Shown here: positions 35,267 to 54,114 of the stretch, one piece after another | How positions within the stretch are numbered: the stretch's first letter is position 1 | How the letters are laid out: each line of letters starts with the position of its first letter | The notes under the pieces: model-generated | Told to the model about the DNA's origin: nothing | The model's database searches: none | The model's input: only the letters and a program-made list of their open reading frames with translations | IMG/VR virus record: IMGVR_UViG_3300017527_000885 | Strand: one strand, 5' to 3' | Source of the DNA: a virus | DNA: 64,000 nucleotides | Program-made: the position numbers and the translations under genes

Positions 35267-35277
35267 TATCTACTCCT

Positions 35278-35611: not shown

Positions 35612-36436
35612 CTACAAATACTCTCTATATATCTCGGGGTCTGTCCTTACCCCACTCTTGCCCCAGACATCACAGTCCGGGTCCCACAACCCCTCATCTC
35701 CAAAGCCCTTGGTGGACAGCTTGTTCCAAAAGGGCCGAGCGTGGGGCAGTGCCACATTGTAACCCGTGGGTTCATCCTTGGACTGTCCCCAATGATGCCA
35801 AATCCATGAATAGCTGGTGGACAGGGCGCGAAATCCCGCCTGGTAAATACGAGAGTCCATATCATAATCCTCACCACCTCCTGGAAAGAACCGCTCGTCA
35901 AAAAGCCCAACCTTCTCGATCCATTCCTTCCTTCTAAATGTGACCATCCACATAGCTATGCCATCGACAACCGCACCCTTCTTCTCTTCCCTGAGCCTTT
36001 GAATGTTCTCTGGGTGCCGGGCATCCTTTAAGCTGAGATGTATTCGGTATCCTTCCTCACCATACCCCCATCCCGGCTCTTTGGGCGACATAGGGGCTAC
36101 AGCTATGGCATTGTCAAACCTCTCAAAGGTCTCAATAATGCCAGGCCACCAGCCCTGAAGAAAGATCACATCGTCATTGGCTATGGTAACGTACTCGGTC
36201 TGACATAGCCGCACCCCTATGTTGGCAGCCTGTGCAAACCCATAGTTCTTACTCGTAGTAACCACGACATCGGCCTGCTCTCGCAACTCCTGCTCGAACT
36301 CGGGAGCGGGTTTAGTCTGATTGACCACTATAGTATTATAGTTGCTGGGTGTGACCTCGCGCAAGGTTGATAGCGCGGGAAGAATGAAATCCTGGCGAAT
36401 AATAGGAAACACAAAGGTATTTATGAGATTCGACAT
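35612..36436 (-). CDS. glycosyltransferase family 2
   Basis: TSKNYGFAQAANIGVRLCQTEYVTIANDDVIF, a GT2 signature. Confidence 0.55.
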   Translation of the reverse strand: MSNLINTFVFPIIRQDFILPALSTLREVTPSNYNTIVVNQTKPAPEFEQELREQADVVVTTSKNYGFAQAANIGVRLCQTEYVTIANDDVIFLQGWWPGIIETFERFDNAIAVAPMSPKEPGWGYGEEGYRIHLSLKDARHPENIQRLREEKKGAVVDGIAMWMVTFRRKEWIEKVGLFDERFFPGGGEDYDMDSRIYQAGFRALSTSYSWIWHHWGQSKDEPTGYNVALPHARPFWNKLSTKGFGDEGLWDPDCDVWGKSGVRTDPEIYREYL

Positions 36437-37320
36437 ACTCGGTTGATGCCCTCCATCATGTGATCTAAGGTGTAGTTTTGCATAACGAAATCGCGGTACT
36501 CATGACTGTCATACGGCCCGTGAATCATCTCTATACACTCGTCTATTGTTGTCCATACCCAGGACTCGGGCCAGATATCTTTGGCGCGCCAAAAGTTGTG
36601 AACCAAAGGCTTGATACCCTTCAGGGCAGCCTCCGCAGTGACGTAACTGAATGCTTCCTTCTGACTCGAGACTATTAGGTAGTCCTTATCCTCAAGCCAC
36701 TCGTCCACAGATTCAACACTGGCGGTGAACTCTACATCTAGCCTCATCTCGTCAATAATGTGTCTCTTGTACCAGTGTAACCAGCGCTCTGTGTTCTCAG
36801 TGCCCAGAACATGAAGCTTCCAGCCTGGCAGTTTAGCCATCACCTGAAATAGCAGGGGAAGACCCTTGGCCGACCATTGGTGTGCCACAAACGCCATGTT
36901 TCTCCCTGCGCCATTCCTGACCCGGAAACCCCACAGGGAAGGTAAAACCCCAAAGGGGACGTGGGCGACCTCCAGGGATTCAGGTAGGTCGGTGTATGAT
37001 CGAACCAACTCTTCAATGTGCTTGGCACCAAAGATGAGCGCGTCCACATTCTCCCAGGTCACAGCGCGAGGCTGTCTAACCCAGCACTCAATATCAATCG
37101 CCCGAATCACGAGGCGCGATCCCTCGAACTTGTACGTGCTTCCGACATTGGCATTATGGTCACACACATCAATGAGACACACATCGGCCCACTCATGCTT
37201 GGCTGGATCGTAGCCCATTGTGTACTCCACCTCGTGACCATTGGCCCTCCAAGCATCTAGGATAGGGCCAAGGAACTTTAGTCTCCAGTTACAGCAAGCA
37301 TATAGTTTCATTTTAAGCAC
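36421..37320 (-). CDS. glycosyltransferase, GT-B fold (GT4-like)
   Basis: EAFSYVTAEAALKGIKPLV matches the E-x7-E/EAxAxG-P-V motif of GT4. Confidence 0.45.
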   Translation of the reverse strand: MLKMKLYACCNWRLKFLGPILDAWRANGHEVEYTMGYDPAKHEWADVCLIDVCDHNANVGSTYKFEGSRLVIRAIDIECWVRQPRAVTWENVDALIFGAKHIEELVRSYTDLPESLEVAHVPFGVLPSLWGFRVRNGAGRNMAFVAHQWSAKGLPLLFQVMAKLPGWKLHVLGTENTERWLHWYKRHIIDEMRLDVEFTASVESVDEWLEDKDYLIVSSQKEAFSYVTAEAALKGIKPLVHNFWRAKDIWPESWVWTTIDECIEMIHGPYDSHEYRDFVMQNYTLDHMMEGINRVCRIS

Positions 37321-38366
37321 CTAAATAGAGGGCGGGGGCCGTGATCCCTTGTCATCCCCAGGAATTCCACCTCTCGGAAATGTTGCTCGAGTCTCGGTCG
37401 GAATGTTTCCTCTCTGTCTGGTACGTGGCCCTCCAAGTAGAACACATCCGCACACAGGTTCGCCATCCATTCGCTGTATCCAACCTGGCGGTCGACAGAA
37501 AGGGCAAACACAATGTCATATTGCTGATCTAGTGCGGGATGTTGCTCGTCAGGAAGATGTAAGCCCAAAAAATCTATGTTCCAGTAGCAGTTCCAGTTAG
37601 CTAGTTCTGCGGCGACACTGGTAACGTGGGGCAAGTCAATTCCTACCACGCGCCCTGCTTTCTGCCTGGTAGCCTCGTAACAGAACAGGCCTAGATTGCA
37701 ACCAATATCCAGCACGGTCTTTCCCTCAAAGGAGAGCTTGTCCAGTTCCATCATCTCTGCACGGTGTTGGAAGTCGCGTTGGCCTCCAACATCAAAGACA
37801 GACTGGTAAGGCTCGGGACGCGATCCCCAAGCTGCATACTCGAACGCGCTGTCAATTAACTGTTGTACATAGCGCTGGGGGTGAGTGAAAGTCCAGGGCT
37901 GGAAATCAACCAGCTTGCCAGCCACCCAGTTCTTAGGGTTCATATCCCAGGAGGCTCTGACATGAGCGTGGCGCATGATCTCTTTGATGCACTCGGGTTT
38001 CCATTCACCCTCACCCGAGAGGTAGTCGGTAACCTGGGCATACTGATCATTCGCTCGGACTATGGCGTACACTCTGGGGGCCAAGTCGCGCATGGCAAAG
38101 ATATTCTGTATTCTGGTACAGTCAATCAGGGGATTGGTGCCCCACTGCAGAGTGTCTAGTTTGAATACCTTGAGACACAGGGCGGGGCGGCCGTAACGCG
38201 AGAGGAGTTGCTGTTCTATTTGCTCGTTGTGAGCAATGAAAGTGTAGACACCCTGCTGTCGCTTGGTGACAGGCGCAAGGGTGCCGGGGAACTCAATGTG
38301 CTCTATTTTCGGTATGCCACTATGATCATATACGGTCCCTGTCTTATCTTCTCCCACAATATCCAT
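37308..38366 (-). CDS. class I SAM-dependent methyltransferase (two-domain)
   Basis: Motif I VLDIGCNLGLF in the C-terminal half. Confidence 0.5.
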   Translation of the reverse strand: MDIVGEDKTGTVYDHSGIPKIEHIEFPGTLAPVTKRQQGVYTFIAHNEQIEQQLLSRYGRPALCLKVFKLDTLQWGTNPLIDCTRIQNIFAMRDLAPRVYAIVRANDQYAQVTDYLSGEGEWKPECIKEIMRHAHVRASWDMNPKNWVAGKLVDFQPWTFTHPQRYVQQLIDSAFEYAAWGSRPEPYQSVFDVGGQRDFQHRAEMMELDKLSFEGKTVLDIGCNLGLFCYEATRQKAGRVVGIDLPHVTSVAAELANWNCYWNIDFLGLHLPDEQHPALDQQYDIVFALSVDRQVGYSEWMANLCADVFYLEGHVPDREETFRPRLEQHFREVEFLGMTRDHGPRPLFRCLK

Positions 38367-38884
38367 TCCTCATCCAGTATTAGCCCTTGCAACTCCCCCT
38401 CCGTAAAATCGTGCTCGTGATGCGGGTTGGCATGTACCGTGGGAATGACTGGCGCACTAAGAATAATCAGGTTTCTCGTAGCGGCCTTCAACATCCCCAC
38501 AAAATGCTCGGGTGGACAACCCAGATGCTCAATGGTCTCAAACGATACAGCGACGGTGCAGTCAGGAAGCTTGTCAATTTCGCACAAGTCCATTTGTACA
38601 TACTCAATGTTCGTTCTGGGCCATTGCTTATGAGCAATCTTTAGAGCCTCAATGTCAATGTCAATTGCTGTGACCCCACTAGCGATACTGGCAAGAAATG
38701 CGCTGCCATATCCTGTCCCGCAGGCTACATCTAGCACGTTGTCATACTCGTTGACAAAGCCCTTTGCTAGATAATAGCGAAAGGTATGACCCAGCCACTG
38801 GCGGGACTGATATCCATACGCGACCGGGTTTATCCATCCTGGCATATTTCCCCCACAAAGTGGAACCGTGTTTTCTCGTCCCAA
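38303..38884 (-). CDS. class I SAM-dependent methyltransferase
   Basis: NVLDVACGTGYGSAFLA. Confidence 0.6.
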   Translation of the reverse strand: MGRENTVPLCGGNMPGWINPVAYGYQSRQWLGHTFRYYLAKGFVNEYDNVLDVACGTGYGSAFLASIASGVTAIDIDIEALKIAHKQWPRTNIEYVQMDLCEIDKLPDCTVAVSFETIEHLGCPPEHFVGMLKAATRNLIILSAPVIPTVHANPHHEHDFTEGELQGLILDEEWILWEKIRQGPYMIIVAYRK

Positions 38885-39984
38885 GGAAGCCCGCGTTCCT
38901 CCACTAGCTGCTTGAGGCCATTGCGTAATGCCCAGTTGTTACTGCGAATATCTTGAAAATGACCGTGTACCGACCAGGGGTGACCTCCTGCATAGTACAC
39001 AGGTATTCCGGCAGTCTTCGCCTTGCCCTTGTCCCGTGGCTGTAGACTGACCCAGTAACCACGCTCGGCCAGAACATTCACCGCATCCTGACTGATCTGC
39101 CATCCGGGGGGCCTGAACCCCTTGACAAACACACCCATTGCCTCAGCTTTGTCCAAGCATTCGTGCATCTCTGCTTCTGTCCATTCCAGGCACTCGGTGT
39201 TCGGCGTGTGTGTCCAGCCATGTACTGCTATCTCCACCCAGTCCAACTCAGAAAGGGGGTACAGGTGCTTGGCAGTTGATGCTGAAGGCATGGCAAATAG
39301 TGTCACCTTGAGATCGGGGTGCTGTTCTTTAAGAGCAAAAAGTAACTCCTGGTTGGGAGCATCATCACATAGATCGTCCAGGTCAAAGATAGAATCATCC
39401 AAGTACTTGCGGATCGCCCAGCCCCAGTTCTTGCGGTCACCGGGGAACTCCTGAAACTCCACGGGAAAATGGTAGGAATGTATGTAAGTGAGAAACTGCT
39501 TGGCGTTGTAGTCAGAGGTGTAACTGTCGTCTCCCAGGTCATCTATCTTGTCCTCCAGGGAGAACAGGGGTCGCCACTTAACAATAATAACGCGGCGACG
39601 AGCTACGCGGACAGCCTCTGCAATAGACTCGCGGTAGCCAGGGACGTGCTCTAGCACATGCCGTAAGAGCACGGTGTCGAATGAACCATCCGGGAAGTCG
39701 AGTGACCGCGCATCCCCTAAGGTAAAGCACGCCTCTGGGAAAAGCTCCAGGCAGGCATCCACAAAGCTCTGGCAGTAGTCAATACCCTGATACTCCACAT
39801 CCCTGTTGTGACGGACTAGGTTCTCGTACACGCAACCTGGGCCACACCCTATGTCCAACAGGCTTTCCCCATCGTTGATACAGGAAAGGGTCCAGATATG
39901 GCTTAGAGTATCCACACACTCGCCATAGCTCCGAATGTAGGTCTTATGATTGGATATGTTCTGATCCCACCAGGTATTAGTCAC
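38830..39984 (-). CDS. SAM-dependent methyltransferase fused to a putative polysaccharide-deacetylase-like domain
   Basis: N-terminal LLDIGCGPG...FDTVLLRHVLEHV (type-11 methyltransferase). The C-terminal half carries HGWTH and looks like a carbohydrate esterase/deacetylase fold (weak). Confidence 0.5.
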   Translation of the reverse strand: MTNTWWDQNISNHKTYIRSYGECVDTLSHIWTLSCINDGESLLDIGCGPGCVYENLVRHNRDVEYQGIDYCQSFVDACLELFPEACFTLGDARSLDFPDGSFDTVLLRHVLEHVPGYRESIAEAVRVARRRVIIVKWRPLFSLEDKIDDLGDDSYTSDYNAKQFLTYIHSYHFPVEFQEFPGDRKNWGWAIRKYLDDSIFDLDDLCDDAPNQELLFALKEQHPDLKVTLFAMPSASTAKHLYPLSELDWVEIAVHGWTHTPNTECLEWTEAEMHECLDKAEAMGVFVKGFRPPGWQISQDAVNVLAERGYWVSLQPRDKGKAKTAGIPVYYAGGHPWSVHGHFQDIRSNNWALRNGLKQLVEERGLPWDEKTRFHFVGEICQDG

Positions 39985-40759
39985 TGCACGTCTCCCAATT
40001 CACTCCCAGCCTCTCCCAACCAAAGTGGTTCACGGGCGGCCATACATCCCGGTGCCCATGCTCCGAGCCTTCCGGGTAGCCCCATGGGTCTTCCCCGAAC
40101 TCCTCTTTGCCGAAGAGGTGTATGGCGCGGACATCCCTGGCATACCCAACCTTCCAGCCAGCCTTGCGTAGCTTTCCGCAGATGTATCGCTCCTCCCCAT
40201 TCCGAGAGGGTCGTTTAACCTGCTTCCATCCTCCTACGGCGCGAACGGCCTCGGTGCGCATCAGTCGCAGCACTGCTCCCACATGCGCGCGCTCGACAAT
40301 CACAGGAGCACTCTCGAACATCTTGCTGGCGGAATCCCCTATCATCACATGGGGGCGACAGGCTATAGCGGCGTAATTCTCTGTATGGTAATGTCGCAGG
40401 AATACTGTTTCCAGCGCCTCAAGCCAGTCATACGTAAGCTCAAGCACTGTATGGTCTAGCTCGTAGTAACGCATTGTTTGTGGTATCAGGTCGCCATCAG
40501 CAGACACATATAACTGTGTCCCCACATGCTCCAAAAGTACATTGTGGCCCCAGTGAACACCCGTATTCTCATTCAGCAGAATCAACTCATCTATGATCCC
40601 CTCGGCTTTCAGGGCTGTCAGCATCTCTGGCGTTCCGTCTTCCGAACCATTATCACACACAATCAGGCGATGATCCATGAGAGTGCGCTTACGAATCTCT
40701 CGCAGGGAAATCTCATGAATGCGCTTGCGATTGCAGGTTAGAACTGCTATATCTATCAT
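39977..40759 (-). CDS. glycosyltransferase family 2
   Basis: IDIAVLTCNRK...LIVCDNGSEDGT. Confidence 0.65.
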   Translation of the reverse strand: MIDIAVLTCNRKRIHEISLREIRKRTLMDHRLIVCDNGSEDGTPEMLTALKAEGIIDELILLNENTGVHWGHNVLLEHVGTQLYVSADGDLIPQTMRYYELDHTVLELTYDWLEALETVFLRHYHTENYAAIACRPHVMIGDSASKMFESAPVIVERAHVGAVLRLMRTEAVRAVGGWKQVKRPSRNGEERYICGKLRKAGWKVGYARDVRAIHLFGKEEFGEDPWGYPEGSEHGHRDVWPPVNHFGWERLGVNWETCSD

Positions 40760-40760
40760 C

Positions 40761-41519
40761 TTACCTCACATAGTGAGTATATAGGCAGGCATCTATCAAA
40801 TGCACTCGGTAGTGCATTGTCAGCTTCCTAAAGTAGGCCCAGTCGTCACCCCACGGGTTGCCCACCAGTTTCTTGGCAGAGCCATAGCCAGTCTCGTAAC
40901 CCAGCCACTCGTCCACACCATCAGCCACCTTATTGTGATTTGTCCAGGGGGGAAGGGGACCGATCTTCTCGTAGCACTCACGGTGGTGTACGAACATTCC
41001 AGTCCCAATCTTCCCAGAAGGGAAGTGGGAGTGGACACCATTCGTGTCTACCGGAGGCATCCAAGCCTTACGAAGCTTTGTCCAGCGCGGGACTGTATGT
41101 GTGCCGTTTTCTTTGTGAATCCCATGCACAACCGCGCCCAACACCCACAGTCGCACATCTGGCTCTTGCTCAATGTTATGAGCCAAAGTAGCTAGATACA
41201 TTGGGTCATAAGCGTCATCCGAATCTAGCCAACAGAACCATTCGCCTTGTGCTGCCTCCATTCCGGCATTTCTGGCGAAGATGCGACCCTGATGCTCTAT
41301 CCCAAATGGCTTAAATCGCTCATCAAACCGCTCAAACCATAGAAGAAGTTCCGCTGTGTCATCGGTAGACCCATCATCTACCACAACACACTCGAAATTC
41401 CTAAAGGTCTGATCCTGGATGGATTTCAGGCAGCGGTCAAGCTTCCCGCCCTCCATCCGGTTGTAAGTAGGAATGATAATGCTAAACTTGGGTTTCGCGT
41501 TGGACTCGGAAGTCATCAC
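40761..41519 (-). CDS. glycosyltransferase family 2
   Basis: FSIIIPTYNR...CVVVDDGSTDDT. Confidence 0.7.
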   Translation of the reverse strand: MMTSESNAKPKFSIIIPTYNRMEGGKLDRCLKSIQDQTFRNFECVVVDDGSTDDTAELLLWFERFDERFKPFGIEHQGRIFARNAGMEAAQGEWFCWLDSDDAYDPMYLATLAHNIEQEPDVRLWVLGAVVHGIHKENGTHTVPRWTKLRKAWMPPVDTNGVHSHFPSGKIGTGMFVHHRECYEKIGPLPPWTNHNKVADGVDEWLGYETGYGSAKKLVGNPWGDDWAYFRKLTMHYRVHLIDACLYTHYVR

Positions 41520-41676
41520 TTAGCCTCACAGCTTTGTCTCGACACGTAGGGCAAACCAGCACAGTGCGTTTGATAAGGCTGAGTGCATCACCTCGATAGC
41601 GAAGCACCCGCACTGGCACAGCCGTTTCCTTTTCCAGTAGCCTATGACATCCTAAGCATTGTAGAAAGGTGTCCAT
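41482..41676 (-). CDS. small zinc-ribbon protein (possible)
   Basis: CLGC...CPTC. 64 aa. Overlaps neighbours. Confidence 0.25.
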   Translation of the reverse strand: MDTFLQCLGCHRLLEKETAVPVRVLRYRGDALSLIKRTVLVCPTCRDKAVRLSDDFRVQRETQV

Positions 41677-42945: not shown

Positions 42946-42964
42946 CCTGCTCCTTTTTAATTGG

Positions 42965-43333: not shown

Positions 43334-43336
43334 TTA

Positions 43337-44637: not shown

Positions 44638-44650
44638 TGTACTAGCTCCT

Positions 44651-45632: not shown

Positions 45633-45633
45633 A

Positions 45634-47227: not shown

Positions 47228-48008
47228 GCACTATCGGATTAAGCTGATATGTGGCCCACTGGCTTTGTAAGAATCTGTGAAAATGGTAGATCAACACCTG
47301 GTCCGTGTTCACAAACATCTTGCTGCCTGCAACAGTATAAATATACTGCTCCTGGTTCCAGGGGGCCAGATTCACCCCCAGATGCTGGATAATGTGCGCG
47401 CCATAATCTTGGGGCCAGGTATCCAGATACATTTGGTCGCCAAACTTGCCATCCTCGTTTCGGTAATAGCACCACTCAATACACTGGTCACTCCAAGTCT
47501 TTGCACACTCGCGGCCTACCGGGTCATTCTTAAAGTAAACTACCCCAACATTGAAGGTCCCATTGATCGCCTTATGCTTCAGCGCTGGAGGGAACCTGTG
47601 CGGAGTGATTGCCACACTCGCGCCTCCAATCTCTTGGTAGAGCGGGGCGAGGTCCCCGAACAGAAAACAGTCAGCGTCAACATAGGTGATATGAGGCGCG
47701 CCCAGCCCGGATAGACAGACATTAGACCACACTGAAGCTAGGGTCCACATGAACTCGGTGTGGGTCCTGCCCTCGTGGGCTTCCTTTAGTCCCTCTACAT
47801 TCAGATGAAACAACGGCATAACAATTACATTCTCGGCCGGATTGTTCTGGAACCACGCCGCAGTCAGGTCGTCACAAGCCAGTACATACAGCCGATATGA
47901 TTTGAGATGGTGTTGGAGCGAGGAGATGAATGCAACTCCTCTGTCTAGATAGTGTGAATCAAACAGCGTTGCTAAATGTATCATCTCGTCCATTGGCATC
48001 TCCTGCAT
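47124..48008 (-). CDS. putative GT-A-fold glycosyltransferase (DxD)
   Basis: YRLYVLACDD...ITYVDADCFLF, a nucleotide-sugar transferase DxD motif. Confidence 0.4.
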   Translation of the reverse strand: MQEMPMDEMIHLATLFDSHYLDRGVAFISSLQHHLKSYRLYVLACDDLTAAWFQNNPAENVIVMPLFHLNVEGLKEAHEGRTHTEFMWTLASVWSNVCLSGLGAPHITYVDADCFLFGDLAPLYQEIGGASVAITPHRFPPALKHKAINGTFNVGVVYFKNDPVGRECAKTWSDQCIEWCYYRNEDGKFGDQMYLDTWPQDYGAHIIQHLGVNLAPWNQEQYIYTVAGSKMFVNTDQVLIYHFHRFLQSQWATYQLNPIVHEYLYTPYAELLQAIGEKIHAAGAGDNLTRGQEG

Positions 48009-48685
48009 ATGTCCAGTATGCCTCTATGTCCTTGGCTAAGAGCCTGGTAAATTCCATTGGCTTTATCACCCAATAGCACCTCGGCCAATCTGTCGGCAGG
48101 CCCTAGTGTATGCTTGCGCGCGTGGTCCATACAACATAGACCTACCTGCCGATCACAAGTAATGATGACTTGGTTCAGCGGGGCAAGACAGGGAAGGTCC
48201 AGGTCCACATATAGTCCATCGTAGATACCCAGGCGCGAGTCTAGCCCCACGTTCATTGTAGAGACATCTCCATTTCTCACCCACGGCACTATGCGATCTC
48301 TCACCTCTGGCTTATAGGGCGTAACAAGTACCTTGGCCCCGTAGTCCTGCAATTCTCTCAGCATTACCTCGGTTAGCCGCCCTCCATTAGTTACAACATA
48401 CGGGTCAGCGAAAGGACATGCCTCAATCGCAAAATTTAACAGGTAGAATAGCCGGGGGTCTTCCAAAGGCTCATTGTACAGATGGAAAGCCAGTTCGCCT
48501 GAATACTCATACCGACCAAGAGTCTCGATAACAGTCTCGGCAGTTGAAACTGGCAGAGTAATTGGTTCCTTTACATAGTGTGCCGGACAGCGAGGGTGCA
48601 AAGGAGCATAACTGCACTGATTGGATAGCTCAATAGCAACACTACGAGTGTGTTCGAACGGGTTTGTGCTGGTAATATGATCCAT
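47981..48685 (-). CDS. hypothetical protein (Cys-containing, possible Fe-S)
   Basis: 234 aa. ELSNQCSYAPLHPRCP is radical-SAM-like but not canonical. Confidence 0.3.
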   Translation of the reverse strand: MDHITSTNPFEHTRSVAIELSNQCSYAPLHPRCPAHYVKEPITLPVSTAETVIETLGRYEYSGELAFHLYNEPLEDPRLFYLLNFAIEACPFADPYVVTNGGRLTEVMLRELQDYGAKVLVTPYKPEVRDRIVPWVRNGDVSTMNVGLDSRLGIYDGLYVDLDLPCLAPLNQVIITCDRQVGLCCMDHARKHTLGPADRLAEVLLGDKANGIYQALSQGHRGILDICRRCQWTR

Positions 48686-49274
48686 TTTCGCTTATGGGCA
48701 TAACTACAATGCCATACTCCTCTTTAATGTACTCAATAGCCACGCTGACAGGTGCCACTCCGTCGACACTCCACTTTACGTCGTCAAAGAAAATAATACC
48801 GTTATCTTTGATGCAATGAAGGGCACTCCTAAAGTCCTCGATGACAGCCACCGTGCTGTGGTCTGCATCAATATAGATAAAGTCGAACAGCATGCCATCG
48901 CGTGCGAACAACGCCAGGGCCTCGGTCGTCAGCATTCTGTACGGAACGATCTTGTCCTGAAAGCCCTTGATGTTGTGCAAGAAAATCTCGTACAATTCAT
49001 CTGTTCTGTACTTGTCTTTCAGACCCTCGAAGCGCTCTTTTGAGGGATTGCTGTCCTCCCACTTGCCCACATCCCAGGTGTCCACGCAGGATACCTGACT
49101 GCCCTTCCCGGTCAGAATGTTTTCCACAAGCCAGATCGCGCTCCGTCCCTTCCAAGAACCAAGCTCTAAGAACTCCACGCCAGGTTCCCCCACGAACCTG
49201 TCCAGAAGAAATGTGAACGGTCGCATATGGTTAAACCAATTCTCTTCCGGCAAACCTAAATCAAGCTCGGTCAT
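48642..49274 (-). CDS. class I SAM-dependent methyltransferase (TylF/O-MT-like)
   Basis: EFLELGSWKGRSAIWL...DADH pattern. Confidence 0.45.
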   Translation of the reverse strand: MTELDLGLPEENWFNHMRPFTFLLDRFVGEPGVEFLELGSWKGRSAIWLVENILTGKGSQVSCVDTWDVGKWEDSNPSKERFEGLKDKYRTDELYEIFLHNIKGFQDKIVPYRMLTTEALALFARDGMLFDFIYIDADHSTVAVIEDFRSALHCIKDNGIIFFDDVKWSVDGVAPVSVAIEYIKEEYGIVVMPISENGSYYQHKPVRTHS

Positions 49275-49905
49275 CTTCCCTCCATATCACGTATGTGCCA
49301 ATGTCGCCCCTGCCCCACCTGACTCGTAGGCAGTGTGTGAATCCGAACTCCGCAAAGAGATTTACAAACGTTCCTTGATTGTATGTGACAGAATAGGTTA
49401 GCTTCTTTTCATAACTAGGGCGCAATTCCACATATGTGGGACATGCAGAAGCTTTCACTCGATGCCAGATAATAGTTCCCTCGGCCCGCGATGCAATATG
49501 GTTCATATATGCCATATGCTCATTTGTAACGTCAGCCACAGAAGAGGCTAGCACTGTATCAAATCCAGTGAAATCAAAGTCAAATAGATCGGTGGCGAGA
49601 AATGTGCCATTATTTCCGAACTCTGCCTGCGCAAGCTCTATCATTGATTCCGAGAAGTCAATGCCAGTGTACTCCACTTCCGGGTAGAACCTCCGCAATA
49701 GTTCTGAGTAATGGCCTACGCCACAGCCCACATCCAGTAGCTTGCGAGGCATTAAGTCTGTCTCGTGCATCTCTTGCATGGTCTCAAGAAAGAACCTGAA
49801 TGGGGCCACATCCAGCGGGTTCACAAGTTCCTTTCTCACGAGGCCTAGTTGCGCCTGTGCAACCTCGGGAGCTTGCCAGGCTTGGACTATGTGGTCATGG
49901 CGCAT
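49261..49905 (-). CDS. class I SAM-dependent methyltransferase
   Basis: LLDVGCGVGHYSELL...FDTVLAS. Confidence 0.65.
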   Translation of the reverse strand: MRHDHIVQAWQAPEVAQAQLGLVRKELVNPLDVAPFRFFLETMQEMHETDLMPRKLLDVGCGVGHYSELLRRFYPEVEYTGIDFSESMIELAQAEFGNNGTFLATDLFDFDFTGFDTVLASSVADVTNEHMAYMNHIASRAEGTIIWHRVKASACPTYVELRPSYEKKLTYSVTYNQGTFVNLFAEFGFTHCLRVRWGRGDIGTYVIWREDDRA

Positions 49906-50495
49906 TTTGTAGCCTTTATCACTATCGCGGGATAGTCATGGAAGTTGCGCTGCGGCTCAATGTCAGTGAAGCCAGCCTCCTCAAGCATTCTAGTCAGCTT
50001 GGCTAGCGAGTATCCATCATAGTGATGAGCGTAATCATCCTTGTGGCTCCCGTAGATTTGACGCAAGCACCAATCCTTTTCTTCCTCGGTTTCTGCCATC
50101 AAGTACATTCGTGCAACTTCTGGAAAATCGGGTACGGAGAGCAAGAGGTGCCCACCATGCTTTAGGGTGAGATACCAGGTTTCCAGTGCTATCTTCGCAT
50201 CCTCTGGCACAAAGTGCTCAAGCGCCTGGATTGCCACTATCTCTGTTGCCTCCTGAGAACTGTAGCCAAATGACATAAAAGTGTCAAGATGAACAATGTC
50301 ATCACGGAAATCTACGACCACCTCTCTTGTAGGAGCAGCCTTGATTGCCTCCTTCACTGGTAACTTGTAGTAATTGTCGAGCGTTGTACAGTTTACTTCG
50401 ACAAGATCGGGGCGGTCGACCGCCAAATGTCCAATAATGTCTACATTGCAGTACCCATCCAGATAAACTGTTCCACAACCTAAGTGTAATTTCAT
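49887..50495 (-). CDS. class I SAM-dependent methyltransferase
   Basis: MKLHLGCG at the N-terminus. ...LEHF. Confidence 0.5.
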   Translation of the reverse strand: MKLHLGCGTVYLDGYCNVDIIGHLAVDRPDLVEVNCTTLDNYYKLPVKEAIKAAPTREVVVDFRDDIVHLDTFMSFGYSSQEATEIVAIQALEHFVPEDAKIALETWYLTLKHGGHLLLSVPDFPEVARMYLMAETEEEKDWCLRQIYGSHKDDYAHHYDGYSLAKLTRMLEEAGFTDIEPQRNFHDYPAIVIKATKCAMTT

Positions 50496-51355
50496 GTGTG
50501 TTTCTCCAACTCGCGGTCCAGTCGCTCCTGTAGCGAGTCTATCGCTAGACTGATGACCTCGGGATGCTCCCCTTTGAATGGCTCGGTCCTGCTATGCATT
50601 CTGTTCACAGGCCATAGCTCGTGGACTCCATCGTACTGTTCCTCGACTTCTTCCCTCTTTCCCAGAACCCAGGGAAGGTAAACCCGGTTAAAGTAGTCCG
50701 GGATAGTCCGCTGTGGCGATCTCTGGAAGTAGTATTCAGTCTTTGTCTTGACCTGAGATGGGAAAACATAACTGTAATGATAGATTCTCAGGTCATACTG
50801 AAGCAGGGTCTGACCGCCCAGGGTGCTTGGTTTATCGCCGTCTGGCAGGAGAATTGTTGGAGGGCGATGTGTCAACCACTTGGCCCCTGGGTAATACCGT
50901 TGCACCCTGCGCCAAATGGCCTTTTCCTCATGTCCGGTCATGTAGTAATCAAAGCCCCCATAGAATGAGTAGGGCTTAAACTCTACGCTGTCATATCCAT
51001 ATTCATCTATCTGTTGAACGATAAATTCTAGGTCATCCGGCTTATACACTTCGTCAGAGTCGACCATCCACAGGTGCGTGGTGTCATCAGGGACCAGATG
51101 CATAGCAGCATTCATCATATAGTCTTTCTCGATGAATGCACCGCTCACTACCCCTAGTATCCCATGCCCATAGTTCCGGTATTCCTCTAGAATTTCCAGG
51201 GTTCTGTCAGTGCTACCAGTAAAACCGCGACTGCGCCAGTAGTCCACTGGCCCCTCAGTAACGACCAGGGGGCCAAAGGGAAGAATGGACTGCAAGACCT
51301 GCTCGAGAACATGATCCCCGTTGAACACTATCATTTGGAAAGTTATCTTGGGCAT
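50492..51355 (-). CDS. putative glycosyltransferase (GT-A-like)
   Basis: ITFQMIVFNGDHVLEQ...VDSDEVY. Weak. Confidence 0.3.
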   Translation of the reverse strand: MPKITFQMIVFNGDHVLEQVLQSILPFGPLVVTEGPVDYWRSRGFTGSTDRTLEILEEYRNYGHGILGVVSGAFIEKDYMMNAAMHLVPDDTTHLWMVDSDEVYKPDDLEFIVQQIDEYGYDSVEFKPYSFYGGFDYYMTGHEEKAIWRRVQRYYPGAKWLTHRPPTILLPDGDKPSTLGGQTLLQYDLRIYHYSYVFPSQVKTKTEYYFQRSPQRTIPDYFNRVYLPWVLGKREEVEEQYDGVHELWPVNRMHSRTEPFKGEHPEVISLAIDSLQERLDRELEKHT

Positions 51356-51359
51356 AGTC

Positions 51360-52115
51360 TTATGAGATGAACGGCAGGTCTCCGCTCTCGTACTGTTTCT
51401 CTGTCAGTAGTGGGTACTCGGGGCAAGGGAACCAGTCACGCCCCCAGCGCGCGTATAGCTGCTCGTTATCTTTGTTTATCTGGTACCTTGCACGAAGAGT
51501 ATCATGGTGGCGGAGATGGTCCACCACACAATTATTACTTCCCACCACCCTGAAGCCTCGGGCCTGGATTGAAAGGCTCAACTCGGGGTCACCAGAGTAG
51601 GTGTGCGCGCGTGTGCCCCACCATCCCACGTGGTTCCCCAGCCATCTCCTGGTCATGCCAAAGTTTGCATAGGGACGGTGGGAGACCAGTTGCAACTTAT
51701 ATTCTTGTCCCGGATCACGGAACGGGAAGGCTAACTGCCCGACGTTCCAGGAATCCTCATTTTCAAGAAACTCCCAGGCATCGTAGATACAGTCACCCAC
51801 AACCTCGCAATCATCATTGAGGTGGACCACGTATCGGCCCCTAGCGTGTGCGAATCCAGTGTTGAATGCGCGAATGGCCCCAACCAATTCCTTTTGCGCG
51901 ATCAGAACCACATCGGGCTGTGCAAGACACCAGCGCTGCGTGCCATCATCTGAGCCTCCGTCGACAACAACGATCTCATAGCTGAGCCATTTGGTAGAAC
52001 GGCGGGCACTCTTGATACACTTCTTTAGAAGCCGAAGCCTATTCCACGTGGCTACAACAACTGAAACCTCAAGGGTGCCAAACAATCTTCGCCAACGCGC
52101 CTTTATCCCGAGCAT
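51360..52115 (-). CDS. glycosyltransferase family 2
   Basis: VSVVVATWNR...IVVVDGGSDDGT. Confidence 0.7.
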   Translation of the reverse strand: MLGIKARWRRLFGTLEVSVVVATWNRLRLLKKCIKSARRSTKWLSYEIVVVDGGSDDGTQRWCLAQPDVVLIAQKELVGAIRAFNTGFAHARGRYVVHLNDDCEVVGDCIYDAWEFLENEDSWNVGQLAFPFRDPGQEYKLQLVSHRPYANFGMTRRWLGNHVGWWGTRAHTYSGDPELSLSIQARGFRVVGSNNCVVDHLRHHDTLRARYQINKDNEQLYARWGRDWFPCPEYPLLTEKQYESGDLPFIS

Positions 52116-52732
52116 AGTTCCCTAGCCCTTTCCAGGTCCTTCCTGGTGTTCACATTTATCCATCCGGTTTTGATAATGTCTACAGGCATCCTTGCCTGCC
52201 ACAAGTACTCAACCCGGTCCTCGCAACGGTCCCGGCAATCATCTATTGTGTCCTGGTTGGGCTTGAGAGCATAGAGCACTATCCACTCCCAAGGATCAAG
52301 GATAGCCCACTTGAGGCCACGTGGAACGCGGTCGATATGACCAGGAATCACGGTGTCGGCCGCAATTATCAGGGACTGGTCAGCCTCCCGTGAAGCCTCT
52401 AGTCCGGCTGCAACCGAGTGGCCGATGGATAGTCCTGGGTCCATCTTTACCACCTGCCCGAATTCTGCGGCCTCTGCTATATGGGAACCGTCCCAAGTTG
52501 CCCCGACCACAGTTACAATGGGCATATTAAGCTGGCGTGCAAGACGGCCGAGGATTGTTTGTCCGTTTAGCCGCTGCAAGCATTTAGGTGCCTCATCCTC
52601 GCCAAAGCGGGTTTGCAGGCCCGCTGCCAGGACAACGGCACTAGAAGATATACCGATCCTCATATCTATAACCCCACTTTTCGAAAATCTCGGCGTCCTG
52701 AAGGTATACACGATCAACCATCCAGGGTGCAT
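52103..52732 (-). CDS. sugar-phosphate nucleotidyltransferase (IspD/MobA-like)
   Basis: AVVLAAGLQTRFGEDEAPKCLQRLNGQTIL. The likely start is the internal MRIGISS. Confidence 0.55.
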   Translation of the reverse strand: MHPGWLIVYTFRTPRFSKSGVIDMRIGISSSAVVLAAGLQTRFGEDEAPKCLQRLNGQTILGRLARQLNMPIVTVVGATWDGSHIAEAAEFGQVVKMDPGLSIGHSVAAGLEASREADQSLIIAADTVIPGHIDRVPRGLKWAILDPWEWIVLYALKPNQDTIDDCRDRCEDRVEYLWQARMPVDIIKTGWINVNTRKDLERARELCSG

Positions 52733-53228
52733 AAAGTTCGTCTCGCATATACTGCTCGATACTCTCTATCCAGGGCCGGGTACCCCACTGCCTGTATGCA
52801 TCTGGGAACCAGCTAAGCACCTCCACCTTAGTCACCAGGCCCGGTGCTATCTCCGGCAAGATGTTTGACAGGTCCTCTGCCAGGGATTCAAACTGCCCTA
52901 CATGCTCTATGCCGGGCTTTGTAAAATTATCCCAGTAATTTGCCATACACACACCCTTGCCATTGTAACCAACCAGCCAGCTACCAAAGTCCCCGCGCCA
53001 TCGCTGTAGTTTTAATTCATGAATCCAGAACGAGATATACCAGTCAAATGGATTGCGGACAAAGGAAAAAGCAGGAGCATCAGAGTACTTGCGCGCATCT
53101 GTCAGCCAGCGGTGTGCCTGACTGTCAATCCAGGCGACCTTTCCCGCCATATGCGTGTGAAGGGCATAGCGAATCATGCCCTCCCCAGTATCGCCCATTC
53201 CTATGTGGATGAACTCTTTACATATCAT
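52641..53228 (-). CDS. putative sulfotransferase-like protein
   Basis: P-loop-like IGMGDTGEG and FSFVRNPFDWYISFW resemble the PAPS-binding motifs of sulfotransferases. Weak. Confidence 0.3.
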   Translation of the reverse strand: MICKEFIHIGMGDTGEGMIRYALHTHMAGKVAWIDSQAHRWLTDARKYSDAPAFSFVRNPFDWYISFWIHELKLQRWRGDFGSWLVGYNGKGVCMANYWDNFTKPGIEHVGQFESLAEDLSNILPEIAPGLVTKVEVLSWFPDAYRQWGTRPWIESIEQYMRDELYAPWMVDRVYLQDAEIFEKWGYRYEDRYIF

Positions 53229-53467
53229 TGGTCGCTTTCAGCATTAGGGTCTGTGGCCGGATTAACGTCCTCTGCTAGCTGCTTGCCAAGCAGAAGAATC
53301 TGATCGAGGGCTGCAACAGCGCCCTTGTGCTGGTTCAATTCACCTATCAGGTCCTCTATCTGATCCTCTATCTGGTCTTTCCTTGCCAGGTGTTGCTGTC
53401 TCATTTGGACCAAGTGATTTCCGGTTAACTGTGTCATTTTTCTCTCTCCCTTAGATAATTTGTCCAT
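53225..53467 (-). CDS. small coiled-coil protein
   Basis: 80-aa ORF. Confidence 0.3.
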   Translation of the reverse strand: MDKLSKGERKMTQLTGNHLVQMRQQHLARKDQIEDQIEDLIGELNQHKGAVAALDQILLLGKQLAEDVNPATDPNAESDQ

Positions 53468-54114
53468 TCTGCTATTGATTGTTCTTTTATAGCTTCCCAG
53501 TCCTTTTCCTCAACTGCTCTTGTCGTCAGATGCCCGCACCTCACAGAAAAGTCACACCAAATTTTCTCGTTGGTTTCATCTCTTATCTTGAGACAAAGCC
53601 TTACATCGCTGCCAACAAGAGGCTCGTCCATAAACGGCCCTAGTTGAGAGTAGGGTGGCTCAAGTTGCTCCAAAACGCTTTTGTGAATCAGCAGGCAGCC
53701 ATGTCCGGTTGCCCCCACAGGATATACCCCGCCGTCTGGATAGTCAAACCAGCGAGACATTGGAAATCGTCCCACTGGCTCTTCTTCCCGGAACACTATA
53801 GGCCAGGTCCGGTCTCCACGAGAGAAGTACAATCCACTAATGACCTTTTTGCCACTATTCAGTAGCTTTGGAAGAGCATCCTGAGGTATAAGCATATCAC
53901 AGTCAACAATAAAAAGCCATTCATACTCGGGCATCTCAAGGAACTGCCTAATCAAGACCTCTCGAGCATACTCCGAGCGCATTCCAATCTTAGTGAGAAG
54001 CATGCTGATGTGTGGCAGACCCATAAGGGGAACCAGCGTCTCGACCACAAACTTTGCGTGGATCAATTCCGGGAAAATAACAAGTAGTGCTACCGAAGGT
54101 ACTGTCATAGTCAC
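53434..54114 (-). CDS. putative GT-A-fold glycosyltransferase (paralog of 43894-44637)
   Basis: FIVDCDMLIPQDALPKLLNSGKKVISGLYFSR. Confidence 0.4.
   Translation of the reverse strand: MTMTVPSVALLVIFPELIHAKFVVETLVPLMGLPHISMLLTKIGMRSEYAREVLIRQFLEMPEYEWLFIVDCDMLIPQDALPKLLNSGKKVISGLYFSRGDRTWPIVFREEEPVGRFPMSRWFDYPDGGVYPVGATGHGCLLIHKSVLEQLEPPYSQLGPFMDEPLVGSDVRLCLKIRDETNEKIWCDFSVRCGHLTTRAVEEKDWEAIKEQSIAEWTNYLREREK

Follow-up and report, generated by a model that had tools for sequence, protein, structure and literature searches.

A sugar-modification gene locus beside mucin-like fibre genes in the late region of an uncultivated tailed phage

Results

The window analysed here, a stretch of 64,000 nucleotides, represents the late (structural) region of a tailed phage that has not been cultivated, with portal, protease/scaffold, capsid, adaptor and tape-measure genes found on the contig. 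On its minus strand, about 20 genes for sugar-making or sugar-transferring enzymes are located between the capsid and neck genes (35612-54114) and adjoin genes for mucin-like fibres. We propose, with a probability of roughly 60%, that the phage uses these enzymes to O-glycosylate its own fibres in the cytoplasm.

Enzyme content of the locus

Families were assigned by Pfam, PHROGs, NCBIfam and PDB searches.

35612-36436, 39977-40759, 40761-41519, 50492-51355 and 51360-52115, minus strand: five GT2 glycosyltransferases (GTs), over the Pfam gathering score
36421-37320 and 41677-42945, minus strand: two Glycos_transf_1/Glyco_trans_1_4 proteins (GT1/GT4-type), barely over threshold
53434-54114 and 43894-44637, minus strand: two GT-A-like proteins with PHROG glycosyltransferase matches and a conserved DxD motif
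47124-48008, minus strand: third GT-A-like candidate, 294 aa, with a 'VDADCF' motif; homologues occur in the islands of relatives
37308-38366, 38303-38884, 38830-39984, 48642-49274, 49261-49905 and 49887-50495, minus strand: six SAM methyltransferases
45634-46755, minus strand: C3-type DegT aminotransferase (E 7.5e-101)
52103-52732, minus strand: NTP_transf_3 nucleotidyltransferase
44652-45632, minus strand: Fcl-like SDR, nearest to GDP-fucose synthase-type epimerase/reductases
46712-47227, minus strand: soluble cupin with a weak FdtA match

The initial annotation had counted at least ten GTs, and nine of these hold up by family match; the 294-aa protein, judged by its motif, matched none of the families searched and so is unproven as a GT. 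The six methyltransferases were recovered, as was the fusion of one of them (38830-39984) to a deacetylase-like domain, whose match of 22 bits lies under the cut-off. From the dehydratase, aminotransferase and ketoisomerase set that had been described, the aminotransferase stands, the supposed dehydratase is the GDP-fucose synthase-type SDR, and the ketoisomerase corresponds to the cupin. The sugar nucleotidyltransferase was correctly recognized, and the possible sulfotransferase gave a sub-threshold match, with a clear sulfotransferase in the same island of relatives. Neither a clear 4,6-dehydratase (family and PDB searches) nor an N-acyltransferase was identified in the locus, so the sugar pathway drawn below is incomplete. 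Protein-O-GT activity was assignable from sequence to no GT of the locus; DUF1975 was not detected, and a PDB search gave no sequence relative for the GT4-type proteins.

No transmembrane segment was predicted among the 26 minus-strand ORFs from 35278 to 54114 (highest Kyte-Doolittle 19-residue mean 1.68, reached at the very N-terminus of one GT), which leaves no flippase, polymerase or lipid-carrier step. Family and transmembrane searches likewise found no Wzx, Wzy, WaaL, polyprenyl-phosphate GT or Gtr-type protein in the locus. The absence of such membrane and export components argues against serotype conversion or surface-polysaccharide assembly.

Boundaries and late-region setting

55122-56093, minus strand: major capsid protein, upstream boundary (phrog_1005, E 6.4e-80; weak Phage_cap_E match)
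54292-54666, minus strand: small conserved protein after the capsid gene, with homologues at the same position in L003, L005, L007 and L029
54115-54291, minus strand: structured 5' leader of the locus, a 177-nt gap upstream of the first GT
29623-29937, minus strand: BppU_N-like small protein (Pfam E 3.6e-9) directly upstream of the adaptor gene
28610-29623, minus strand: head-to-tail adaptor with an extra N-terminal beta-sandwich domain, downstream boundary
24020-26641, minus strand: GT pair in the tail module, outside 35612-54114
25847-26641, minus strand: 264-aa GT2-like member of that pair; its L040/L041 counterpart, by position and size, carries PF00535
25101-25850, plus strand: HNH gene between the two tail-module GTs
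24020-25069, minus strand: 349-aa Glyco_trans_1_2 member of the pair (E 4.7e-22)

Capsid homologues, 41-76% identical, anchor the related loci (L numbers). The capsid match and the adaptor fold confirm the reported placement between capsid and connector genes. The 54292-54666 protein, which matched no Pfam or PHROGs family, is possibly a decoration protein, and the BppU_N-like protein, with a homologue at the same position in L038, is a candidate fibre anchor.

All genes of the locus are co-oriented, as had been noted, with intergenic gaps of at most 19 nt within 35612-54114. Membership of one operon with the capsid gene, also claimed, is not established, because a putative terminator-like hairpin and a putative promoter-like site precede the first GT: the leader holds a near-consensus TTGACA-17-TACAAT, followed by a hairpin of 15 bp with a U-run and by two GC-rich hairpins (MFE -63.5 kcal/mol, z = -5.6). 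The extent given for the locus also needs qualifying, with the two tail-module GTs lying outside it and conserved non-enzyme phage genes (42965-43333, 43337-43924 and 53225-53467) interrupting the enzymes inside. The tail-module pair is conserved in L001, L033, L040 and L041, and homologues of 24020-25069 occur without the partner in L007, L037, L038, L042 and L043.

A two-GT cassette with two insertions

Gene order in relatives shows that the locus is an ancestral two-GT cassette that received two insertions.

53434-54114, minus strand: lineage-core GT-A-like glycosyltransferase, first cassette gene (phrog_12406, E 6.6e-13)
53225-53467, minus strand: small coiled-coil-like protein of the ancestral cassette, with homologues in L003, L005, L007 and L029
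44652-53228, minus strand: insertion block A, 12 genes
43894-44637, minus strand: second lineage-core GT-A-like protein (phrog_1574, E 1e-20; phrog_12406, E 1e-9)
42965-43924, minus strand: two non-enzyme phage genes, 195 aa (phrog_5335) and 122 aa
35612-42945, minus strand: insertion block B enzymes, nine genes

The first core GT has invariant DxD and GHGCLLIH motifs, is 27% identical (E 8e-12) to the gp12 glycosyltransferase that adjoins the capsid gene in Cluster J mycobacteriophages, and has homologues in many Synechococcus phages; the second has homologues in L002, L003, L005, L007, L029 and L038. In L007 the order is capsid, GT, GT, adaptor, and L001 has between capsid and adaptor about 1.1 kb with one 131-aa plus-strand ORF and an opposite-strand ORF. 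The genes flanking block A are neighbours in L003/L007, and the closest relative, L029, has a related yet different block at this site. In L007 the gene for the 122-aa protein (42965-43333) is conserved and immediately precedes the adaptor gene.

Block A comprises the weak sulfotransferase-like protein, the NTP_transf_3 protein, two GT2, three methyltransferases, a Cys-rich SPASM-like protein, the 294-aa candidate, the FdtA-like cupin, the aminotransferase and the SDR. Block B runs from the GT4-type protein at 41677-42945 through a 64-aa Cys4 protein, two GT2, the methyltransferase/deacetylase-like fusion, a methyltransferase, a methyltransferase with an N-terminal domain lacking assignment and a GT4-type protein to a GT2. 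This second insertion carries enzymes and fibres together.

Mucin-like fibres and their enzyme neighbours

34769-35562, minus strand: two small proteins (94 and 165 aa) separating enzymes from fibres
33615-34748, minus strand: second fibre-type protein with a Laminin_G_3 (ConA-like lectin) domain (Pfam E 7.6e-11)
33271-33615, minus strand: 114-aa Cys-rich protein, paired with the fibre-head gene in L017, L019, L025 and L027
29990-33271, minus strand: mucin-like fibre, 1093 aa

The mucin-like structural proteins that had been reported beside the enzymes are real (29990-33271 and 33615-34748). The larger has an N-terminal head (aa 1-452), a single-chain pseudo-trimer of C1q/TNF-like jelly rolls whose fold matches distal domains found in known fibres and in the glycoprotein BclA, then a stalk (aa 453-1033; window 30173-31915) in which 564 of 581 residues (97%) are Ser or Thr, and five C-terminal 10-aa repeats. 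Because the stalk uses all ten Ser/Thr codons at genome-like frequencies and its DNA repeats match only 60-84%, selection on protein composition is implied. In the second fibre-type protein, the Laminin_G_3 domain is followed by a Ser/Thr linker of about 40 aa and a C-terminal domain common to L019 fibre-like proteins. The 114-aa protein is a candidate fibre assembly partner; family searches gave no match for the two small proteins.

On the unrelated contig L044, seven block B enzymes recur in the same order (48-66% identity) and adjoin a 610-aa STST-repeat protein (79% Ser/Thr), with no further homology to the window. Directly upstream of the adaptor, L037 has a GT1, two nucleotidyltransferases, a GT2, a GT and a LamG protein, followed by a 996-aa protein of which about 760 aa are poly-Ser, its island including a 41677-42945 homologue; L042 has a methyltransferase and GTs, then a poly-Ser protein, and L041 a 1160-aa SASA-repeat fibre, then GT2, methyltransferase and GT2. 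In L002 a GT precedes a 399-aa protein whose tail consists of Ser/Ala repeats. In L025 a GT lies directly upstream of the fibre-head gene pair, whose fibre has no Ser/Thr stalk, and the large island of L029 has no Ser/Thr-rich fibre in the 20 kb examined; the enzymes thus need not be confined to Ser/Thr stalks, or act on them at all. Across the about 10 loci on which the association is based, at least three glyco genes occur in 4/5 loci with Ser-rich fibres and 1/5 without, a difference that is not significant (Fisher two-sided p ~0.2).

Proposed pathway and alternative explanations

Late in infection, the nucleotidyltransferase, SDR, cupin isomerase and C3-aminotransferase would use sugar phosphates or NDP-sugars of the host to make an unusual amino-deoxy sugar, probably one of the 3-amino-3,6-dideoxyhexose type. 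In the host cytoplasm, a GT-B enzyme would initiate O-linked chains on the Ser/Thr stalk; the candidate initiator is the 41677-42945 family, because it is found with Ser-rich fibres in L037 and L044. GT2 enzymes would extend the chains and methyltransferases, possibly with the deacetylase and sulfotransferase, decorate them, yielding a stiff bottle-brush fibre with a C1q/TNF-like or lectin-like head, anchored near the neck via its C-terminal repeats. Mucins rise roughly 0.2-0.25 nm per residue, from which the stalk would be about 120-145 nm long. If the fibres are glycosylated, likely benefits are resistance to proteases and shear, shielding, and reach or adhesion when a host is captured. The earlier preference for a glycan on the phage's own virion over serotype conversion is favoured by the absence of membrane and export genes and by a cassette that travels with an STST-repeat protein; the glycan itself is predicted in silico.

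Poly-Ser linkers can function unglycosylated, and a less probable explanation is that the Ser/Thr stretches are flexible linkers of this kind while the locus glycosylates capsid, decoration or tail-tube subunits. The two core GTs adjoin the capsid gene in L003 and L007, both without Ser/Thr fibres, the tail-gene GT pair is conserved in relatives, and L029 combines a large island with no detected Ser/Thr fibre; the remote gp12 homology and the glycan sites reported for mycobacteriophages (below) point the same way. Left unexplained are the joint movement of block B and an STST-repeat protein between unrelated contexts and the recurrence of poly-Ser fibres by islands in L037, L041 and L042. The two readings are compatible: the inserted blocks may serve fibres, and the capsid-adjacent and tail-module core GTs may glycosylate capsid, decoration or tail-tube proteins, as in mycobacteriophages.

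Remodelling of the host's envelope glycans (LPS, capsule, S-layer or cell-wall polysaccharide), which would exclude superinfecting phages or keep progeny from re-adsorbing, is the usual proposal for cyanophage GT clusters and serotype-converting phages. Cyanomyoviruses with up to 13 GTs plus sugar epimerases, the Synechococcus phage homologues of the core GT and the JGI label of 41677-type relatives ('involved in cell wall biosynthesis') fit it, and soluble GTs could work on lipid-linked host intermediates at the inner face of the membrane. We nevertheless consider it unlikely here, since the locus lacks any membrane-spanning protein, flippase, polymerase, ligase, lipid-carrier GT or GtrA/B-like gene, searches of the 64-kb window gave no integrase, and the enzymes sit among virion genes, where relatives have fibre genes. 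Very improbable, in our view, is hypermodification of phage DNA (glycosylated hydroxymethyl-pyrimidines) against restriction: to our knowledge, no DNA-glycosylation system is as large as this set of ~10 GTs, six methyltransferases and an amino-sugar pathway. The window does encode a Dam methylase and a radical-SAM enzyme, but no 5-hydroxymethylase, TET/5mYOX or C5-methyltransferase was found in it, and the locus lies in the virion module in association with Ser/Thr-repeat proteins. Diverse DNA glycans built by phage GTs have been described (bioRxiv 10.1101/2023.12.21.572611).

The least credible alternative is a host polysaccharide island, misassembled or prophage-adjacent, the latter having been raised in the initial annotation. 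Bacterial O-antigen and natural-product sugar loci typically contain these enzyme families, and some parts have homologues in MAGs binned as Patescibacteria. The contig is, however, a phage structural module, and the genes on either side of the block are neighbours in relatives. Conserved phage genes both border and break up the block, its genes abut or overlap unbroken, related or alternative islands occupy the same site in five or more independent contigs that come from different samples, and 100% identical proteins lie on a 68.9-kb JGI contig. In GC (0.51-0.52) and codon usage (RSCU r 0.58-0.75) the blocks match the remainder of the phage.

Comparison with known systems

Describing such a locus as highly unusual for a phage was an overstatement. 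Virion glycosylation has been demonstrated for Che8, Corndog and Myrna (Freeman et al. 2023, as described in citing papers), with mycobacteriophage glycans reported at the C-termini of capsid and tail-tube subunits, and one cyanomyovirus encodes 13 GTs, which together with sugar epimerases have been interpreted as cell-surface modification genes. As to the gene-order comparison with actinophages that had been suggested, Cluster J mycobacteriophages carry a published insertion of 8-10 genes, GTs and methyltransferases, at exactly the same position. Our locus shares this architecture and is about 2-3 times larger than this, its closest precedent; what it adds is scale, sugar-biosynthesis genes and a probable mucin-like substrate rather than a new category.

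Genomic setting and transcription of the locus

Genes on the - strand run co-oriented and unbroken from ~63967 down to 27230 (ORF calling), and the glycosylation locus (35612-54114) lies within this run, with intergenic gaps of at most 19 nt and many overlapping genes. Its flanks are those of a phage late region, as guessed in the initial annotation, with a capsid gene upstream and an adaptor (connector) gene downstream:

60212-62308 (- strand): portal, upstream of the locus
Between the portal and capsid genes (- strand), upstream of the locus: M23 peptidase, protease/scaffold and scaffold protein
55122-56093 (- strand): major capsid protein (phrog_1005, E 6e-80)
28610-29623 (- strand): head-to-tail adaptor (structure model from a 19-sequence alignment, pLDDT 81)
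Downstream of the adaptor: TM-containing tape-measure-like protein of 1043 aa and other tail genes

The genes for the glycosyltransferases (GTs) thus belong to the virion structural module, where they are flanked by the capsid gene and the head-tail adaptor gene. No integrase, tRNA or Rfam element was detected within the 64-kb window. A megablast search with the locus and head module gave no match among 50,697 phage genomes, and the phage has no cultured close relative. Looking up the exact capsid and adaptor protein sequences in an assembly index likewise returned no record. Its capsid protein shares at most ~36% identity with capsids of Rhizobium, Arthrobacter and Pseudomonas siphophages, which have no glyco genes after the capsid gene.

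Several neighbouring genes merit mention. Directly after the capsid gene, an 82-aa ORF (54801-55049, - strand) contains a typical C2H2 zinc-finger motif (FQCSECGARFVLPGHLEQHGNSRH); when only the longest ORF is called, an overlapping + strand ORF is chosen instead, and ORFs of ~90 aa occupy the corresponding position in three relatives (L003, L005, L040). A calcineurin-like phosphoesterase (58977-60191) is encoded between the portal and M23 peptidase genes. The window also encodes a radical-SAM enzyme (2697-3443) and an SPFH/Band-7 membrane protein (466-1527), the latter conserved in the relative L033.

The locus had been described as transcriptionally inside the structural operon. Co-orientation and tight packing agree with this view, but a promoter-like site and a terminator-like hairpin in the preceding gap make it uncertain. 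This 177-nt gap before the first GT gene (54115-54291, - strand) contains a promoter-like TTGACA-17-TACAAT, an 11/12 match to the sigma-70 promoter, and behind it a 146-nt leader that forms a 15-bp hairpin with U-run plus two GC-rich hairpins in the predicted fold (MFE -63.5 kcal/mol, z = -5.6 versus shuffles). The gap matches no Rfam family; judged from its predicted folding, it may act as a terminator behind the capsid genes, as an attenuator or as a small RNA. When the locus was scanned for promoters and terminators, neither was enriched over shuffles, and transcription units are therefore not definable from such scans. A strong terminator-like hairpin (15-bp stem and U-run; 57834-57867, - strand) also occurs inside the co-oriented head-gene run, between the M23 peptidase and protease/scaffold genes.

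Enzyme complement and predicted sugar pathway

Domain searches and the flanking genes confirm the presence of a glycosylation locus, and nearly every enzyme proposed in the initial annotation was upheld by the domain searches. The inventory comprises six SAM methyltransferases and the following - strand genes, and three or four genes within the block are non-enzyme genes:

35612-36436, 39977-40759, 40761-41519, 50492-51355, 51360-52115: five GT2 enzymes, above the Pfam gathering score
36421-37320, 41677-42945: two Glycos_transf_1/Glyco_trans_1_4 enzymes (Pfam)
53434-54114, 43894-44637: two GT-A-like enzymes (PHROG glycosyltransferase families, DxD motif kept)
47124-48008: candidate GT-A-like enzyme (motif only)
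45634-46755: DegT-family aminotransferase (E 7.5e-101)
44652-45632: NAD-dependent SDR
46712-47227: small cupin
52103-52732: NTP_transf_3 nucleotidyltransferase

Some assignments require qualification. In the predicted methyltransferase/deacetylase fusion (38830-39984), the methyltransferase stands, and the C-terminal polysaccharide-deacetylase match is weak. The possible sulfotransferase corresponds to a sub-threshold match in the window. The claimed dehydratase had to be abandoned: the only SDR of the locus most resembles epimerase/reductases of the GDP-fucose synthase type (182 bits, whereas the dTDP-glucose dehydratase model reaches 98 bits; PDB 7ll6, E 1.6e-40), and no clear NDP-hexose 4,6-dehydratase was found in the locus. 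Pfam searches of the locus found no acetyltransferase domain either, and the 4,6-dehydratase and N-acetyltransferase steps may come from the host. The aminotransferase is of the C3 type used in the dTDP-3-amino-3,6-dideoxyhexose pathway (RmlA, RmlB, FdtA/QdtA, FdtB/QdtB, FdtC). Its named best PDB relatives are the C3-aminotransferases DesV (2oga, 4.8e-77), QdtB (3frk, 4.7e-71) and WbpE (1.5e-62); the top PDB match is 7b0d (E 1.1e-84), deposited as a glutamine-scyllo-inositol transaminase. As for the proposed ketoisomerase, the 46712-47227 product is cupin-like with an HxH motif, but its assignment to FdtA (3,4-ketoisomerase) falls under the Pfam cut-off (E 4.4e-4), and PDB and NCBIfam searches gave no match. 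PDB sequence searches with the GT4-type protein, the 294-aa GT-like protein and the adaptor profile returned nothing usable.

A second, conserved GT pair belongs to the tail module:

25847-26641 (- strand): GT2-like, 264 aa
24020-25069 (- strand): Glyco_trans_1_2, 349 aa

These genes are separated by an HNH gene on the + strand. The 24020-type GT was found in all relatives examined, immediately upstream of a small (~130-aa) tail gene, a position suggesting that it may glycosylate tail proteins. Relatives join this GT directly to the 16888-type gene, where the window has an insert of ~6.7 kb (17283-24010). This insert contains the gene for an M23 peptidase-domain protein of 1135 aa, + strand genes for a VWA protein and a Dam methylase, and an apparently spurious low-complexity ORF of 200 aa (17383-17985).

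Ser/Thr-rich fibre proteins

The mucin-like structural proteins that the initial annotation placed beside the locus are borne out by two genes, which a third accompanies:

29990-33271 (- strand): fibre of 1093 residues with a C1q/TNF-like head and a Ser/Thr stalk
33271-33615 (- strand): Cys-rich 114-aa protein, paired with the fibre-head gene in every case
33615-34748 (- strand): Laminin_G_3 lectin-like domain, 40-residue Ser/Thr linker, and a C-terminal domain common to other fibre-like proteins

The fibre stalk (residues 453-1033) consists of Ser and Thr at 564 of its 581 positions (321 Thr, 243 Ser), with a repeat period of ~12 residues (STSTSTTTTSSS). All ten Ser/Thr codons occur about as often as in the genome as a whole, and the underlying DNA repeats agree at only 60-84%, which argues that the protein composition is selected rather than a recent slippage artefact. 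The head is a compact trimer of 10-strand jelly rolls, and the C-terminus comprises five 10-residue repeats. A PHROGs search of the fibre module and neck genes gave no matches.

Comparable architectures occur elsewhere. On a 10-kb viral contig (L027:210-5384), a fibre of >1724 aa combines the same C1q-like head with a Laminin_G_3 domain and ~900 residues of (SSSSSE)n, and a second head gene with a Cys-rich partner is found on the same contig. In L043 (3-1805), the fibre slot upstream of the adaptor gene is filled by ~50 copies of an 11-12-residue repeat (SSVTADAIIKK...). By eye, the C-terminal repeats of the window fibre resemble it, which suggests a shared anchoring or stalk module.

Modular growth of the locus and its association with Ser-rich fibres

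Related loci were collected from IMG/VR with the capsid protein (14 relatives) and with adaptor and core-GT profiles, the core GTs being 53434-54114 and 43894-44637; a metagenome scan with the core-GT profile yielded only three loci, all distant. The gene orders of the IMG/VR relatives show how the locus was built. In L001, the capsid gene is followed by a 131-aa + strand ORF, an opposite-strand ORF (~1.1 kb) and the adaptor gene. L003 and L007 have the order capsid, small protein, 53434-type GT, 77-aa protein, 43894-type GT, 134-aa protein, adaptor. The window retains this two-GT cassette, enlarged by two big insertions: block A (44652-53228), between the 53225 gene and the 43894 GT, and block B (29990-42945), between the 42965 gene and the BppU_N-like gene preceding the adaptor. 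The closest relative (L029/L033, a 110.7-kb contig; capsid identity 76%) lacks block B and holds a different block A at the same site, consisting of two GT2 enzymes (48-54% identical), a DUF268 protein, a 47124-type protein, an SDR, a methyltransferase-SDR fusion and a clear sulfotransferase (E 1.5e-14).

All that L044 has in common with the window is seven of the nine block-B enzymes, in the same order and at 48-66% identity; ~2.5 kb downstream of them it encodes a 610-aa protein that is 79% Ser/Thr, with STST-type repeats as in the window. Other Ser-rich fibres are preceded by other islands at the site used in the window, just upstream of the adaptor gene. In L037, a LamG protein, two nucleotidyltransferases, a GT1 (homologous to 41677-42945, E 8.5e-64), a GT2 and a further GT come before a 996-aa protein that is poly-Ser over ~760 residues. 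L042 carries a methyltransferase and GTs, then a 382-aa poly-Ser protein, and L041 a 1160-aa (SASASPS)n fibre, then a GT2, a methyltransferase and a GT2. In L002, the gene after that for the 43894-type GT encodes a protein whose tail consists of Ser/Ala repeats over 250 residues, and in L025 the 53434-type GT lies immediately upstream of the fibre-head gene pair. Ser-rich fibres are absent from relatives without islands (L001, L038, L040). At least three glyco genes were found in 4/5 loci with Ser-rich fibres versus 1/5 loci without, in a small sample (Fisher p ~0.2). L029 is a counter-example, with a large island and no Ser/Thr fibre within the 20 kb covered.

Automatic gene calls in several loci run on the opposite strand across the Ser-rich repeats, as a result of which metagenomic annotation systematically overlooks proteins of this kind. 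Repeat proteins overlooked by public gene calls are the following (+ strand, locus coordinates):

L037:6672-9662
L042:5501-6649
L041:2351-5833
L044:18832-20661

The opposite-strand ORFs across Ser-, Ser/Thr- or Ser/Ala-repeats give products such as 'LELELDDE...'. The repeat proteins of L037, L041 and L042 have in common ~3 copies of a C-terminal (E/G)(S/T)R(T/V)Y motif, and those of L042 and L044 a 'FExWLWDR' motif.

The glycan acceptor and alternative readings

The initial annotation interpreted the locus as building a glycan on the phage's own virion proteins, and our data support this in part. We put the probability that virion proteins, Ser/Thr fibres included, are glycosylated by the locus at roughly 60%, judging from gene content and arrangement. 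None of the proteins encoded at 35278-54114 has a transmembrane-grade hydrophobic segment, an N-terminal stretch of 53434-54114 being borderline. Wzx, Wzy, WaaL, a polyprenyl-phosphate GT, an ABC transporter and Gtr components were likewise not detected in the locus, and a PF14667 match on 46712-47227 falls on the soluble cupin-like protein of 171 aa. With no TM, flippase, polymerase or ligase component, the predicted pathway is wholly cytoplasmic and ends on a soluble acceptor.

A surface polysaccharide locus of the Wzx/Wzy type or dependent on an ABC transporter was considered and rejected, since neither matching families nor membrane-grade proteins are present. A serotype-conversion cassette would consist of GtrA/GtrB and a membrane GT, and none of these was found in the locus. 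We also rejected the locus as a host island or misassembly; blocks A and B both have the same GC content and codon usage as the rest of the phage, and a 68.9-kb JGI contig encodes proteins 100% identical to window gene products. Glycosylation of DNA was rejected as well.

Host hints

Two capsid relatives (L020, L021) fall in Chloroflexi/Anaerolineales MAG bins (scan of genome contigs), and fibre-head and GT homologues occur in Patescibacteria MAGs. These hints, drawn from homologues, conflict, and naming a host was rejected. Among the homologues, a fibre head in a Patescibacteria MAG (L018, GCA_041389145.1; 38% identity) lies beside tRNA-synthetase genes, another listed alongside it (protein entries P0004, P0131) has a signal peptide, and a 41677-type GT homologue (49% identity) is labelled Candidatus Curtissbacteria.

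Proposed mechanism and significance

In the proposed mechanism, the nucleotidyltransferase, Fcl-like SDR, cupin and C3-aminotransferase would make a nucleotide sugar of the 3-amino-3,6-dideoxyhexose type, the host probably providing the 4,6-dehydratase step. O-linked chains would be initiated on the Ser/Thr stalks by a GT-B enzyme and lengthened by GT2 enzymes, and the six methyltransferases, possibly with the deacetylase and sulfotransferase, would decorate them. The fibre would form a stiff bottle-brush of ~120-145 nm (estimated at ~0.2-0.25 nm per residue), carrying its C1q-like binding head and presumably anchored near the neck. The core GTs may act on capsid or tail proteins, as in mycobacteriophages.

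A broader reading, to which we give slightly less than even odds, is that an environmental tailed-phage lineage bears true viral mucins in the form of single-chain fibres. Their Ser/Thr stalks of several hundred residues would be densely O-glycosylated (methylated, aminated, possibly sulfated) by a mobile, self-contained cassette exchanged horizontally with the substrate gene. The capsid-neck glyco-island would then be a hypervariable determinant of particle surface chemistry, the phage counterpart of clade-specific fibril glycosylation in giant viruses and of bacterial SRRP adhesins.

To our knowledge, self-glycosylation of phage particles has been demonstrated so far only in a few mycobacteriophages. 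The present locus suggests that some environmental phages spend close to a third of a 64-kb region on a glycan coat, that dedicated mucin-like fibre substrates have evolved, and that the enzyme set is swapped together with its substrate as a cassette. If true, this would extend mucin-type protein O-glycosylation to bacterial viruses, provide a defined enzyme-substrate pair (seven conserved enzymes and the STST repeat) for glyco-engineering in the bacterial cytoplasm, and introduce a new variable into how phages recognise their hosts, how stable their particles are, and how they evade immunity or grazers.

Comparison with known systems

Comparing gene order with actinophages, as the initial annotation had advised, revealed the same capsid-to-connector layout in Optimus, a layout also described in PMC3706429. 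In Cluster J mycobacteriophages (Omegavirus), insertion genes that vary between members include five GTs and methyltransferases, with targets stated as unknown in 2013 (PMC3706429). The genome position and the kinds of genes (GTs and SAM methyltransferases) are the same, and 53434-54114 is remotely homologous to gp12-type GTs such as Optimus gp12 (27% identity over 79% of the query, E 8e-12). However, the Cluster J insertion spans ~6 kb versus 18.5 kb, lacks the nucleotide-sugar genes present in the window (aminotransferase, SDR, cupin, nucleotidyltransferase), and has a Ser/Thr kinase and a Zn-protease, neither of which was seen in our locus. No Ser/Thr-repeat fibre like that of the window is described for Cluster J, and its capsid proteins are not close relatives of the window capsid.

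According to papers that cite Freeman et al. 2023, phage-encoded GTs of the mycobacteriophages Che8, Corndog and Myrna glycosylate the phages' own virion proteins in the host cytoplasm, Che8 gp110 and Corndog gp38 being essential GTs, and the glycans reportedly protect the particles against antibodies. In these phages, a handful of enzymes adds short glycans to capsid and tail-tube subunits, at their short C-terminal tails, whereas the window combines a large enzyme set with a dedicated Ser/Thr stalk of several hundred residues.

Cyanomyovirus GT genes lie outside the virion module, either dispersed or in clusters, and the genomes are probably larger than 170 kb. The GT/LPS-type clusters of S-SCSM2R and P-SSM2 are comparable to the window in GT number, S-SCSM2R having 13 GTs, described as possibly the highest number in a marine phage, and core-GT homologues occur in Synechococcus phages. 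Cyanomyovirus GT genes are, however, interpreted as modifying host cell wall or DNA, with no Ser/Thr-repeat substrate described.

By analogy, the closest functional counterparts would be SRRP loci, BclA and the Megavirinae fibril clusters. In the SRRP loci of Gram-positive bacteria, which comprise GtfA/GtfB, further GTs and accessory Sec, a long Ser-rich substrate is likewise encoded beside a varying complement of soluble GTs, and its cytoplasmic O-glycosylation is initiated by GT-B and extended by GT-A enzymes; in the window, the Ser-rich gene 29990-33271 lies 2.3 kb from the nearest GT gene. The DUF1975 GtfA/GtfB priming pair is missing from the window, where 36421-37320 and 41677-42945 give only Glycos_transf_1/Glyco_trans_1_4 matches in Pfam and no PDB sequence match at E <= 0.01, hence none to solved GtfA chains. 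SecA2/SecY2/Asp export genes have no Pfam matches in the locus, which encodes no transmembrane proteins. Lacking DUF1975 GtfA/B and accessory Sec, the locus does not belong to the SRRP family. Moreover, it adds methyltransferases and an amino-sugar pathway, and its putative substrate is a virion fibre released by lysis instead of an LPXTG adhesin. The collagen-like glycoprotein BclA from the exosporium of Bacillus anthracis forms a true homotrimer that contains a collagen triple helix and bears its head at the C-terminus, whereas the window fibre fuses three C1q-like domains in one chain at its N-terminus and has a single Ser/Thr chain as its stalk. Megavirinae (Mimivirus and relatives) glycosylate their virion fibrils with clade-variable clusters of 6-33 genes for rare amino-sugar biosynthesis and GTs, and island content differs between close relatives in the window's lineage too. 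They are eukaryotic giant viruses with unrelated virions and genomes more than 10 times larger, and the likeness is drawn from descriptions of gene content. In conclusion, the locus represents a known kind of phage locus in a much larger and biosynthetically autonomous form, coupled to mucin-like fibres that are a previously undescribed class of putative substrates, and exchanged as a cassette.
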